Shown one piece after another: positions 18,273 through 50,566 of a stretch of DNA of 64,000 nt (the stretch's first letter is position 1; each line of letters begins with the position of its first letter). The stretch is from a virus. Its lineage: Duplodnaviria > Caudoviricetes. A program made the position numbers and the translations under genes. The notes below the pieces were generated by a model, which was not told the origin of the DNA, did not search any database, and saw only the letters and a program-made list of their open reading frames with translations. Location of the stretch: the IMG/VR virus record IMGVR_UViG_2639762749_000010, positions 17,974 to 81,973 of that record; one strand, 5' to 3'.

Positions 18273-18707
18273 TTGGAGGAATATAACGTGTTATACCCTA
18301 TTGCGATTGAAATCGGTGATGAGAATCACGCTTACGGTGTGGTTGTGCCCGATATATCAGGCTGTTTCTCTGCGGGTGATTCAATGGAAGAGGCAATAAA
18401 AAACGCTAAAGAGGCTATCACAGGGCATTTAGAGTTATTGGCCGAAATGAACCAACTCCCCCCTGAAGCAAACTCATTGGATTACTGGATCAAAGACGCA
18501 GAGTACGCAGGATGGGCATGGGCTGTGATTGAGGTTGATGTGGAACCGTACTTAGGTAAATCGACCAAATTCAATGTAACTTTGCCTGACTTGTTATCAA
18601 AAAAAATCGATGATCAGGTTAAAGCCAGCCCAAACCTGTACAAGAACCGTAGCCACTTTTTGCAAGTAGCTGCTTTGCATGAGTTGCAAAACGGTATTCA
18701 GCAATAA
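18273..18707 (+). CDS. hicB: HicB antitoxin (start probably GTG 18288)
   Basis: YGVVVPDISGCFSAGDSMEEA; C-terminal RHH NVTLP...RSHFL. Confidence 0.92.
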   Translation: MEEYNVLYPIAIEIGDENHAYGVVVPDISGCFSAGDSMEEAIKNAKEAITGHLELLAEMNQLPPEANSLDYWIKDAEYAGWAWAVIEVDVEPYLGKSTKFNVTLPDLLSKKIDDQVKASPNLYKNRSHFLQVAALHELQNGIQQ

Positions 18708-47817: not shown

Positions 47818-48198
47818 ATGAACAAGTCTCAAATTTTCTCATCCGCTCACAAAATAGCCAAAAACACAGTTGCAACTGTTGGCAACTACATGATTGCTTT
47901 CTCTCTGGCTCTGCGTGATATCTATAGCTCAATGAACAACACTGAAAAAAAATTGCTCTCCATGGGATTCAAGGCATGGGAACGTAACGGTCATCGCCGT
48001 ATCTATATCAACATTGAGCGATTCGAAGAAGTTTTCGGATTGAAAGTCAGTTTCTATAAAACAGGTAATATCAGTTCAGCCAAATTAAATGGTGAGAAAA
48101 TATCTAACTCCAAAGCCTGTGAGTTAATCCCACTGAAAGCGTTTTATGATTGCGTCAATAACGAATGGAACTGCGGCAAACTGAAACCAATTTTCTAA
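47818..48198 (+). CDS. Candidate anti-CRISPR/anti-defence protein
   Basis: First gene of acr-like operon; MNKSQIF..AH N-terminus resembles recalled AcrIF20 start; function by association only. Confidence 0.5.
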   Translation: MNKSQIFSSAHKIAKNTVATVGNYMIAFSLALRDIYSSMNNTEKKLLSMGFKAWERNGHRRIYINIERFEEVFGLKVSFYKTGNISSAKLNGEKISNSKACELIPLKAFYDCVNNEWNCGKLKPIF

Positions 48199-48260
48199 TG
48201 CAACCGAGGTAAGGGGGTTACACCCGACCTACATCCAACAAACAACTAGAGGATTTTGAA

Positions 48261-48461
48261 ATGACTACTATAACTATTAATACCTATGATGTTGCCGGGC
48301 GTTTCGATATGACAAAAGAAGAGGCCAGAAAATGTTTTCAACACGTTGAGACGTTAGCTATTGATGCTAACTATAACGTAGATTACACAGAATCCCTATA
48401 TACAGATGAAGAAAGCGAGAGATTTGTAGAAAAAGCATTCCAAAGTTATTATCCAGAATAA
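48261..48461 (+). CDS. acrIE8: Type I-E anti-CRISPR AcrIE8-like
   Basis: [10 protein letters not shown]...RF.M..EEA...F..VE..A...[14 protein letters not shown] closely matches AcrIE8 as recalled; small and acidic. Confidence 0.8.
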
Positions 48462-48518
48462 ATAAACCAATCCAAATGAAGCCCTGCGTCAGTGGGGCTA
48501 TTTTCATAAGGCGAATCT

Positions 48519-48908
48519 ATGGACAATCGAGAGAAATTAATAAAAGCTGGCGAAATGATTTTTGGCAGCCAATGGCAATCCCCCATGGCTCGCCTATTAG
48601 GGGTGGACTCTCGTGCCGTGCGTCGTTATGTCGCTGGCAATTCCCGCGCCCCCATGACCTACCGATTAGTCGATTCGTTAAAACAAAAAAAACAAGAAAT
48701 TGACGAGGCCATTACGTTAGTCGAATCAGATTTAATATCAGGAGATTGCGTCACGCCAGAATTGATTGAATCGATTGTATCGCGATACACCTATGAGAAC
48801 GATGATCATCGTCAACTGGCAGTGGATGCCATCAAGAAATCAATTTACGAAATGGTTTACCTATCAGACTTAAATCAGATAGCCAAAAAATACTCATCTC
48901 AACAATAA
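48519..48908 (+). CDS. HTH protein, putative Aca-type regulator
   Basis: QWQSPMARLLGVDSRAVRRYVAG HTH; last gene of acr operon. Confidence 0.65.
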   Translation: MDNREKLIKAGEMIFGSQWQSPMARLLGVDSRAVRRYVAGNSRAPMTYRLVDSLKQKKQEIDEAITLVESDLISGDCVTPELIESIVSRYTYENDDHRQLAVDAIKKSIYEMVYLSDLNQIAKKYSSQQ

Positions 48909-48916
48909 GAATACAG

Positions 48917-49298
48917 GAAAAGTCCCCGTCAATACGGGGAACATAAATTAATAATCAATAGAAATGAAAATAAAAGCGGTTCAACCCCGTAAAACGGGGA
49001 AAATAAGTTGATATCCACCAAAAAGACGAATAACAACGGTTCAACCCCGTTTCACGGGGAACATAAGTTGATATCCACCAAAAAGACGAATAAAGATGGT
49101 TCAACCCCGTAAAACGGGGAACGAAATAACAATAAAAGTGAAAATAATAACGGTTTATCCCCGTTTCACGAGGAACGCCATAATCATAAAAATGAAAGTG
49201 GAAATTATAACGGTTTATCCCCGTTTCACGAGGAACGCCATAATCATAAAAATGAAAGTGGAAATTATAACGGTTTATCCCCGTTTCACGAGGAACAC
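48917..49298 (-). CRISPR. Cas-less type I-E-like repeat array, block B (7 repeats; eroded eighth near 49325)
   Basis: 28-nt repeats at 48917, 48977, 49037, 49097, 49151, 49211, 49271; minus strand e.g. GTGTTCCTCGTGAAACGGGGATAAACCG; spacers 32,32,32,26,32,32. Confidence 0.85.
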
Positions 49299-49374
49299 CA
49301 AATTAATCAATTTGAAAATAACAACGACTTATTCCCAATTCCCATTTACATGATGAACAATTATATTATAGCTA

Positions 49375-49626
49375 TTATTCTGATTTCATCCAACCAATTA
49401 ACCCGTCACAAAATTCATCGAACTGTTGATCTGACATTGGCCTGAATCGGGGAACGGTTTCTGCGGTACTATTCCCTGATGCCTGTTTTCTGGCATCAAC
49501 TGCCCGACCCCATCCGTCAATTTGAGATTTAGAATATTTCCCTTGTAAAATATCAAAAATCTCATTGCGATTAAGCCTCAATGCAAGACAGATTCGTCTG
49601 AGATTTTGATTATTTCTTACAGACAT
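49375..49626 (-). CDS. DUF1456/YehS-like protein inside the array
   Basis: NNQNLRRICLAL...SKSQIDGW...MSDQQFDEFCDGLI; AAGGT RBS. Confidence 0.65.
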   Translation of the reverse strand: MSVRNNQNLRRICLALRLNRNEIFDILQGKYSKSQIDGWGRAVDARKQASGNSTAETVPRFRPMSDQQFDEFCDGLIGWMKSE

Positions 49627-49684
49627 AGTGAATTACCTTTTCAACATAATCGAAAGAGCCTTTCTAGCTTAATTTTAGGCCTTT

Positions 49685-49827
49685 AAAGCAATCCCCGTAA
49701 GACGGGGAACATGAGTTGATAATCACTAAAAGTGAAAGCACTACCGGTTTATTCCCGTCGGAACGAGGAACGTTAAAAACGTAATAATCAAAATAATAAC
49801 GGTTAATCCCAGCATGACTGGGAACGC
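49685..49827 (-). CRISPR. Cas-less type I-E-like repeat array, block A (3 repeats)
   Basis: Repeats at 49685-49712, 49745-49773, 49800-49827; spacers 32 and 26 nt. Confidence 0.75.
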
Positions 49828-49832
49828 ATTTA

Positions 49833-49860
49833 ATAATACACAGAAAATTAGTTAACTCAA
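49833..49860 (-). promoter_or_regulatory. Putative promoter for the array and DUF1456 gene
   Basis: Minus strand TTGAGT-16-TATTAT, placing +1 near the first repeat. Confidence 0.45.
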
Positions 49861-50090
49861 ATGCAAGTTAATTTTTTTTGACTCAAATCACTAAACCCCA
49901 GAGCCATTTGCTCTGGGATGGCAGTATGTTACCTCATCCAGTTTTAACTCTTCTTTGCCATCCATATCACCCCACAAAAACCATCAACACAGCGTGATTA
50001 TAAATATTAAAAGTTAAAAATTCCGAATAAAGTCAGTATCTTTAGATAAAAATGCCAAGAAAGTAAAATGGCACTTTATTTCAAGGCTGA

Positions 50091-50294
50091 TTAAGCATCA
50101 TGCTGAATAGGTACGCAGCCACCATAAACAAGAACATAACGCGGAGCAAGAATGCGGCGGGCTTCATACAATGATTCGGCTTTGATGGTTATGCGCTCTG
50201 GGATGGATTTTTGGTCAGCACGCACCTGCGCATAAAACAGGAATTTATAGGATTTTGGGCGCAGGTGTGCGCAATGATAATTATGATTAATCAT
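50091..50294 (-). CDS. icd: Icd-like host cell division inhibitor
   Basis: YKFLF...RAD...ITIKAESLYEARRILAPRYVLVY; downstream of c4. Confidence 0.75.
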   Translation of the reverse strand: MINHNYHCAHLRPKSYKFLFYAQVRADQKSIPERITIKAESLYEARRILAPRYVLVYGGCVPIQHDA

Positions 50295-50487
50295 GATGGT
50301 AATCGCTCTGTAATGGTAAAAAAATCACCACCAGAGAGGTTCCAATCTCTGATTGGTGGTGAGCTGAACGGAGTTGGAACTACCGGCCATTACAGCTACG
50401 GCGATTACCGAGGCAAACACTAATCCGGCCAACCTTGCGGTTGCTCCGCCCCGCCCACCATAAATTGGATGTGCATAGGCATGACAC

Positions 50488-50566
50488 AAAAAAAAGACGC
50501 AAGCGCGTCTGTGTCGCTGTAATGGTTATCGGGGTTCCAATCCCGACAGTAGGATTTACTACTGCC
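50488..50566 (-). ncRNA. c4: c4 antisense RNA
   Basis: GGCAGTAGTAAATCCTACTGTCGGGATTGGAACCCCGATAACCATTACAGC...; complementary targets at about 50373-50396; TTGACA at 50596-50601. Confidence 0.75.

Follow-up and report, generated by a model that had tools for sequence, protein, structure and literature searches.

The subject of this analysis is a small gene that lies inside an array of CRISPR-like repeats in the genome of a tailed phage (Duplodnaviria; Caudoviricetes; IMG/VR record IMGVR_UViG_2639762749_000010). The whole stretch of DNA that was analysed, hereafter the window, is 64,000 nucleotides (nt) long and corresponds to bases 17974-81973 of the 81,973-base virus record. On its minus strand an open reading frame (ORF) of 83 amino acids (aa) is placed between two blocks of repeats that resemble those of type I-E CRISPR systems, on the strand that has the sense of CRISPR RNA (crRNA). 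In minus-strand order, the features of the locus are:

49852-49871, no strand: perfect inverted repeat TTAACT-N8-AGTTAA over the -35 hexamer, a candidate operator and the only perfect copy in the 64-kb window
49833-49860, minus: promoter-like site TTGAGT-16-TATTAT directly 5' of the first repeat, a match to consensus only
49685-49826, minus: repeat block B, three I-E-like hairpins (49825-49800, 49771-49745 and 49710-49685)
49799-49774 and 49744-49713, minus: block B spacers, of 26 nt and 32 nt respectively
49636-49639, minus: Shine-Dalgarno-like AAGG, seen in the sequence 9 nt 5' of the ATG
49375-49626, minus: 83-aa ORF from the ORF listing, ATG start, stop codon included
49377-49375, minus: stop codon of the 83-aa ORF
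49299-49358, minus: degenerate repeat-like unit (49358-49325) and a 26-nt spacer (49324-49299)
48916-49298, minus: repeat block A, seven I-E-like repeats (49296-49271, 49236-49211, 49176-49151, 49122-49097, 49062-49037, 49002-48977 and 48942-48916)

Read on the minus strand, each unit opens with GTTCC, followed by a stem of 5-6 bp with a short loop and then by a ATAAACCG-like handle. The array is phased, with start-to-start periods of 54, 60 or 61 nt (60, 60, 54, 60, 60 and 61 nt through block A), and it holds nine spacers, three of 26 nt and six of 32 nt (five distinct), which are T-rich and mutually paralogous, two of them being identical. The hairpin of the last block B repeat (49710-49685) is intact and its 5'-handle part is degenerate; the degenerate unit at 49358-49325 begins 17 nt past the stop codon of the ORF; and the terminal block A repeat (48942-48916) has a degenerate handle and a terminator-like look. 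No further match to the I-E repeat was found in the 82-kb virus record, and a scan of IMG/VR for the repeat pattern with a 3-nt loop gave no match. The sense of the array was set from host arrays (in the Xenorhabdus ehlersii host the identical repeat sense runs toward cas8e), from which it follows that the ORF and the array are co-oriented. The initial annotation had described an 83-aa ORF with a ribosome-binding site, lying between repeat blocks and co-oriented with them, and this is confirmed by the ORF, the AAGG, the repeat coordinates and the sense of the host arrays.

The viral repeats are selected RNA hairpins, because compensatory changes are found on both sides of the stem. Specifically, four of the six stem pairs carry compensatory double changes (16 cells, 25 viral units), and sliding the partner column destroys the pairing. 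The figure of 99% paired positions is circular, as the units were chosen by a regular expression that demanded pairing; no such circularity affects the compensatory changes or the strict phasing.

Conservation of the gene and its linkage to repeats

The 83-aa ORF is a real gene under purifying selection, since relatives exist and the pairwise ratio of nonsynonymous to synonymous substitution (dN/dS) among four close homologues is 0.05-0.18, with synonymous sites near saturation. Homologues of the protein are found at 81%, 69% and ~60% identity. The 81% relative lies in Xenorhabdus yunnanensis and was found first by a word-indexed search and then by a locus search, which also gave the 70% copy in an X. 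ehlersii prophage that is itself an IMG/VR record; the fourth close copy of the gene is that of genome G428. Other searches returned nothing: positions 48800-50000 had no BLAST match in the phage and plasmid collections, the ORF belonged to no PHROGs family, and a scan of IMG/VR with P0003 alone gave no match.

Eight distinct homologous loci were looked at for repeats. Six of them have I-E-like repeats that are co-oriented with the gene and flank or adjoin it, and the gene is array-flanked in all three of the Xenorhabdus genomes that carry it, among 36 scanned. The initial annotation had made such linkage of homologues the test of its reading, and it is borne out here; the linkage between gene and array is conserved. 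In the X. ehlersii locus four units lie directly upstream of the gene, preceded by a promoter-like pair (TTGACA/TATTTA), and the X. yunnanensis locus has the same layout. The G428 locus (G428:C2) has at least five units upstream and two downstream, the gene again being embedded. In genome G199 (G199:C2) a repeat-like pair is found directly downstream of the gene, one unit having an 18-nt core in common with a window repeat, and on the metagenome contig L050 two repeat-like hairpins are followed by a 219-aa ORF and then by the gene. A downstream repeat block is present in two of the four close loci (the window and G428) and absent from those of X. ehlersii and X. yunnanensis, and two-sided excision is therefore not a conserved feature.

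Two of these loci show further peculiarities. Upstream of the gene in the G428 array (L071, minus strand), the 'spacer' that separates the first two repeats consists of a (CCGTAT)n microsatellite with ~10 copies. In G199 (L019, 1745-1898, plus strand), where the gene encodes a fusion of a helix-turn-helix (HTH) domain and DUF1456, the downstream region holds a repeat-like unit with its stem halves ~90 nt apart, then a 23-nt spacer, then a hairpin identical over 18 nt to the core of a window repeat. This contig has a plasmid-like look, as a KorA/TrfB-type repressor is encoded there.

Resemblance to host repeats and regulatory spacers

The viral repeats and some of the viral spacers mimic those of the host. 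Both Xenorhabdus hosts encode I-E systems (Cse1; Cas3, Cas6e and Cas1), with repeats almost identical to the viral units; most differences fall in the loop or at stem positions that are compensated, and the window units are one base shorter in the loop than the host repeats. Spacers were scored by ungapped comparison against shuffled controls. The last spacer of the X. ehlersii prophage, one of three, matches, at 28 of 33 positions, the spacer found in a free-standing mini-array of two repeats in the cas locus of its own host, the maximum for shuffled spacers being 23.

By a pattern scan, terminal or free-standing mini-arrays of this kind occur in several of the 36 Xenorhabdus genomes, and seven were looked at. 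In all seven, a match to the mini-array spacer is found 53-95 nt downstream and on the same strand, and the protospacer adjacent motif (PAM) there is AAG in five hosts and ATG in one. The seed match is 12-15 nt in five of the seven when every sixth base is ignored, a length reached by at most 1/100 shuffled spacers. From species to species the first five bases of spacer and site also change together (TTATT, TTGTT and TTTTT). In X. ehlersii the mini-array and its matched site lie at L015 18406-18495 and ~18320-18352 on the minus strand, and the same layout is seen in L052, L053, L054, L069, L074 and L075. Where checked, the target site is upstream of an 83-aa HTH_Tnp_1-type gene, a glyoxalase gene and cas3. 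From these sequence relations the host mini-array is a candidate crRNA-like self-regulator of the CreR/CreA type. It may also be related, we presume, to the NilD RNA of X. nematophila, reportedly described by Veesenmeyer in 2014, and by this presumed link it may bear on what is a long-unexplained crRNA of Xenorhabdus. Like CreR of the Salmonella enterica I-E system, which has 15 nt plus AAG (bioRxiv 10.1101/2023.03.10.532045), the Xenorhabdus mini-array is a degenerate two-repeat unit whose spacer has a seed of 12-15 nt matching an AAG-flanked site nearby, but its location and the regulated gene differ.

As a separate observation on X. ehlersii, an ORF at L015 17935-18210 (minus strand), which by eye resembles InsA of IS1, lies between the target site and what is left of the small HTH gene, so that in this strain the regulated gene may be disrupted.

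The three 26-nt spacers of the window (beginning at 49799, 49324 and 49150) have 10-, 12- and 19-nt prefixes, respectively, in common with host mini-array spacers, and the 12-nt prefix of the spacer at 49324-49299 equals the crRNA-like host spacer of one Xenorhabdus species. All three land on the same AAG-flanked host sites as the host mini-array spacers. They differ from the 32-nt spacers by exactly 6 nt, and 6 nt is one Cas7 step in Cascade. Most spacers do not beat shuffles, and a blastn-short search with the spacers, run on the host cas loci and on the window, returned noise only.

Two other descriptions of the array were considered and set aside. A canonical adaptive CRISPR array does not fit spacers that are paralogous, two of them identical, with chance-level matches for the three 32-nt spacers searched in the phage collection and none for the one searched in the 36 Xenorhabdus genomes; and a targeting mini-array for competition between elements was rejected, as these same searches gave no protospacers above chance.

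Family and predicted fold of the 83-aa protein

The window protein matches the DUF1456 profile (PF07308) at 22.2 bits (E=1.6e-4), which is under the Pfam gathering cut-off of 27 bits, its residues 5-77 aligning to profile positions 1-63 of 68. Its own relatives match the family more strongly: 42 of the 56 aligned relatives do so at E<=0.01, the best at 5.2e-14, and the nearest clusters in an Atlas feature search carry DUF1456. Because of these relatives, and despite its own score, the protein is, on profile evidence, a divergent, single-domain member of a DUF1456 subfamily borne on mobile elements. The label 'DUF1456-like' in the initial annotation thus stands by way of the relatives, but not by the protein's own score.

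Searching 1.84 billion representatives with a profile yielded 55 small proteins at E<=1e-3, almost all 50-110 aa long, in which the motifs R-N-N, S-K-S...W-R and M-x-D-x-x-F-D-x-F-C-x-G-L are conserved. The subfamily is carried by prophage, plasmid-like and viral contigs, and most of its representatives are metagenomic singletons. Strong matches are found in only 2 of 401 sampled Enterobacterales; another 95 Enterobacterales genomes have weaker matches, mostly in frames of about 156-190 aa open between stops, four genomes having two DUF1456 matches within one frame, and these weaker matches are most likely chromosomal YehS-type genes. Among 400 sampled Gammaproteobacteria the subfamily occurs once, in the prophage copy of the X. 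ehlersii genome, which was itself the centre of the search, and of 36 Xenorhabdus species genomes three have the gene. The subfamily is similar to DUF1456 proteins such as those of the YehS type in profile across the whole domain, but differs from the chromosomal matches (frames of ~156-190 aa) in being 75-95 aa long, single-domain and rare. The titles and abstract openings of the literature that names DUF1456 report nothing on its function.

An AlphaFold2 model of the protein, built from a 56-sequence alignment, has a predicted local distance difference test (pLDDT) score of 93 and consists of three helices, a β-hairpin and a long C-terminal helix. The predicted fold is that of an XRE-type HTH domain with a β-hairpin insert, and in the model the whole length of the protein is taken up by this single domain, with a net positive charge. 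In an exhaustive comparison with VIA-align only XRE-type HTH domains were found at the top (Z 5.4-6.7). These were NE0471 (Z 6.7), the anti-CRISPR-associated (Aca) protein Aca10 (Z 6.6, root mean square deviation 1.9 Å over 56 residues of a 57-residue chain), the Salmonella phage repressor Rep (Z 6.2), Aca1 (Z 6.0) and the HTH domain of AcrIF24 (Z 5.4), and the neighbours also included restriction-modification controller (C) proteins and the N-terminal domains of CI. Foldseek gave XRE-type regulators as well (C-proteins and CI N-terminal domains), at template modelling (TM) scores of 0.5-0.57 that are leads to a fold class only. A search of PDB sequences with the family profile found nothing significant, the best match being Aca3 at E=0.15. 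The G199 homologue is a 152-aa protein in which a second HTH (HTH_31) precedes the domain, and its gene adjoins that of the KorA-type plasmid repressor. Homology to the presumed crRNA-regulated 83-aa HTH protein of the host was also considered and was dropped at an hhalign probability of only 21%.

Possible functions of the protein and its surroundings

We propose, tentatively and with a probability that we put at roughly 0.45, that the 83-aa protein is an Aca-like DNA-binding regulator of the array operon. This reading is ranked first because an HTH protein within a counter-CRISPR locus is what Aca proteins are. Under this proposal the gene and the array of I-E repeat mimics would form one transcription unit, and the array would be an RNA anti-CRISPR locus of the Cracr/Racr type, its repeats copying the hairpin and handle of the Xenorhabdus I-E system and its 26-nt spacers the PAM-proximal part of a host crRNA-like regulatory RNA. 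By binding to the inverted repeat that overlaps the array promoter's -35, the protein would damp transcription after an early burst, and host Cas6e would cut at the hairpins and separate the mRNA from the crRNA-like units. Excision of the message by Cas6e, which the initial annotation had put forward, is plausible, though on the 3' side it is not conserved. That annotation had also offered three functions, a new anti-CRISPR (Acr), a regulator and an RNA-binding partner; with its XRE-type HTH the protein fits a regulator best, and a basic HTH fold speaks less for a new Acr.

Several findings are consistent with this proposal. The HTH fold typical of Aca proteins is seen in the model at a pLDDT of 93, with XRE-type neighbours at middling Z-scores (5.4-6.7). 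The gene may share an operon with the array, being co-oriented with it and enclosed by it, with one promoter-like site upstream; promoter-like sites in the region number 8 against 7.0 expected, which is no enrichment. At up to two mismatches the window holds 10 sites like the candidate operator against 3.9 expected, one of them perfect, and no regulon was drawn from these. In the X. ehlersii locus an inverted repeat with 10-nt arms also lies over the -35. As for the array, it consists of host-like repeats on a mobile element outside a cas locus (no search for cas genes was made in the record), and at least nine PAM-proximal bases of a candidate CreR/CreA-type spacer from sampled Xenorhabdus species are present in three of its nine spacers (19, 12 and 10 nt).

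The following points weigh against this interpretation. With regard to the operator, the inverted repeats of the X. ehlersii and X. yunnanensis promoters do not have the sequence of that in the window, the X. yunnanensis copy has two mismatches, and no inverted repeat was seen at the promoter of the G428 locus. With regard to the fold, Z-scores of 5-7 are middling and, being under 8, may reflect a common arrangement that gives a fold class and no function, and Foldseek found nothing at E<=0.001 against PDB and BFVD, all E-values being >3. With regard to the array, only three of the nine window spacers resemble host regulatory spacers and the six of 32 nt do not, and the seed length of two of the three short ones is not above that of shuffles (reached by 13/100 and 28/100), so that mimicry by these two, whose sequences are of low complexity, rests on prefix identity rather than on the shuffle test. 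No target was found for the 32-nt spacers searched, one against the 36 Xenorhabdus genomes (up to three mismatches) and three against the phage collection, where matches were at chance level (E>=0.08, unrelated hosts). Two homologous loci have no repeats, namely L051, with only 83 nt of downstream sequence, and L049, whose protein is 30% identical; the protein can thus work without an array. Finally, a separate HTH candidate (129 aa, 48519-48908) is already present in a convergent neighbouring operon.

RNA anti-CRISPRs, Cracr arrays and Aca proteins are already known. In comparison with Aca10 (PDB 7xi5) and Aca1 (PDB 7fa3), the window protein is likewise a small single-domain HTH protein in a putative phage counter-CRISPR locus, is alike in structure (Z 6.6 and 6.0) and has an inverted repeat over the promoter -35. 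It differs in having no sequence similarity to them, in a β-hairpin that replaces one XRE helix, in its partner, which is an RNA array and not an acr protein gene, and in its position within the array instead of at the end of an operon. In this comparison the inverted repeat is a candidate operator, and DNA binding by the protein is predicted.

Cracr arrays are described by Liu et al. (bioRxiv 10.1101/2024.10.29.618823) as viral mimics of the host crRNA-like regulators CreR/CreA with shortened spacers, the I-E examples given there, a Salmonella prophage array among them, having 2-3 spacers; in its text the paper names neither Xenorhabdus nor DUF1456, although its tables S1-S3 may list Xenorhabdus arrays. 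The window array resembles them in being borne on a mobile genetic element, in having several host-like repeat units and in its shortened spacers that copy the PAM-proximal part of a host regulatory spacer. In contrast to the I-E Cracr arrays it has nine spacers and not 2-3; the majority of its spacers are full length (32 nt) and paralogous; it is interrupted by a protein gene; and the host site that it mimics is upstream of an HTH gene, a glyoxalase gene and cas3 rather than at the casA promoter. Racr are solitary-repeat RNA anti-CRISPRs with validated I-E examples (Nature 2023; PMC10651486), phage repeat mimics that, like those of the window, are expected to bind Cas6 and other Cas proteins and that often adjoin acr genes. 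Racr are solitary units, whereas the window has a phased array with spacers, some of them copying a host regulatory spacer.

An alternative, which we consider unlikely, is that the protein is itself an Acr, or a bifunctional Acr-Aca protein like AcrIF24, which would block full-size I-E Cascade or Cas3 and spare short-spacer complexes. The gene is tightly linked to RNA arrays of anti-CRISPR type, and in type I-F, according to the Cracr study, Cracr genes are tightly linked to the HTH-bearing AcrIF24, which spares short-spacer complexes (bioRxiv 10.1101/2024.10.29.618823). Structural neighbours of the window protein include the AcrIF24 HTH domain (Z 5.4), and AcrIF24, an Acr-Aca fusion, shares with the window protein the pairing of an HTH protein with crRNA-mimic genes. 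The window array also mixes spacers of 26 nt and 32 nt, a difference that we take to be one Cas7 step. However, AcrIF24 has about 228 aa with extra Csy-binding domains and belongs to subtype I-F, whereas the window protein has 83 aa, consists of the HTH only, with no extra effector-binding domain of the kind in AcrIF24, and belongs to an I-E setting; nor did the PDB profile search find a sequence relative among solved Acr structures.

It is less probable still that the protein is a passenger, an HTH regulator with another role (e.g., in immunity or gene control) that travels with the repeats as one cassette. The repeat-free homologues in L051 and L049 would agree with this, as would the position of the window locus next to a P1-type c4 immunity region. 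The X. yunnanensis cassette follows a gene of lysis/spanin type, by the look of its sequence, whose 3' end lies at L009 ~1975-2010; upstream of the array promoter of the window, positions 49895-49935 (minus strand), with an 8-bp GC-rich hairpin, are identical to this end at 26 of 32 nt by eye. This remnant suggests that the array and gene moved as a cassette between unrelated phages. On the other hand, three separate lineages show the linkage, each in a layout of its own: the gene follows the repeats in Xenorhabdus, precedes them in G199 and has another ORF between it and them in L050. The rarity of the family (1/400 Gammaproteobacteria, the one being the search-centre genome, and strong matches in 2/401 Enterobacterales) makes repeated adjacency by chance unlikely.

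A more elaborate and quite improbable proposal is that the subfamily is the I-E counterpart of AcrIF24, its message being carved from the array by host Cas6e, so that the protein would be made together with the mimics only where a I-E system is present and would act on full-size Cascade while sparing the 26-nt complexes that silence the cas3-side target. If true, this would be the first function for DUF1456, and the first instance in which CRISPR repeat processing within a viral array matures a protein gene.

We regard as very doubtful the related idea of a sensor gated by Cas6e, in which the mRNA would be stable or translatable only after Cas6e has cut the flanking repeats and the regulator, produced solely where the host I-E system is active, would then switch on other counter-defence genes. 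Each of the four close loci has an intact hairpin of Cas6e type 52-67 nt ahead of the start codon. When the unprocessed leader of the window is folded to minimum energy, the first spacer pairs with codons 4-9 of the ORF, and the processed leader has no significant structure (z 0.08). Duplexes between the array and the start region beat shuffles in the window and X. yunnanensis (1/200 each), but not significantly in X. ehlersii (25/200) or G428 (64/200). Moreover, the downstream repeat block is missing from two of the four close loci, and the ORF has its own Shine-Dalgarno-like AAGG, which makes translation from an unprocessed transcript possible. As an observation in its own right, the first block B spacer (49799-49774) contains 12 nt perfectly complementary to ORF positions 49617-49606 (codons 4-8, R-N-N-Q-N); the complementarity is in the middle of the spacer and not at its seed end, and it may be due to chance in AT-rich sequence.

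Binding of the protein to RNA, that is to the repeat hairpins or their crRNA-like products as an aid to stability or to loading into Cascade, would suit its co-encoding with structured RNAs, its conserved N-terminal R-N-N motif and the conserved arginines of the β-hairpin, but is highly improbable given that all fold neighbours bind double-stranded DNA and that there is no match to a known RNA-binding family.

Returning to the proposed Aca-like regulator, what is new here is the link to the DUF1456 family, how large the I-E array is and what it is made of, and a protein gene within it, an arrangement seen again in a second element. As an XRE-like HTH associated with counter-CRISPR loci, DUF1456 would have a testable function, and a large I-E example, with nine spacers and on a P1-like Xenorhabdus phage, is added to the viral crRNA-mimic arrays. 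The layout is unusual in that a protein gene stands where a spacer would be, and this is found again in a second Xenorhabdus element. The split between 26-nt and 32-nt spacers, together with a host mini-array and its co-varying AAG-flanked target upstream of cas3, offers a system for the study of how phages may subvert CRISPR self-regulation.

The locus is bordered on both sides by other small phage features:

50490-50565, minus: isrK-like RNA
50352-50465, minus: C4 antisense RNA
50294-50091, minus: 67-aa ORF matching 'transcriptional repressor' PHROGs
47818-48908, plus: three small genes of 126, 66 and 129 aa converging on the array end, in PHROGs of unknown function

The upstream features (50091-50565, minus strand) have the layout of the P1-type immunity I region, with the isrK-like RNA, the C4 RNA and the 67-aa ORF followed by the repeat array; in P1 the position taken here by the array is that of the antirepressor gene. 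Among the convergent genes, the 129-aa one (48519-48908) has weak similarity to an HTH of YdaS-like type. The window also carries portal and tail-fibre families.

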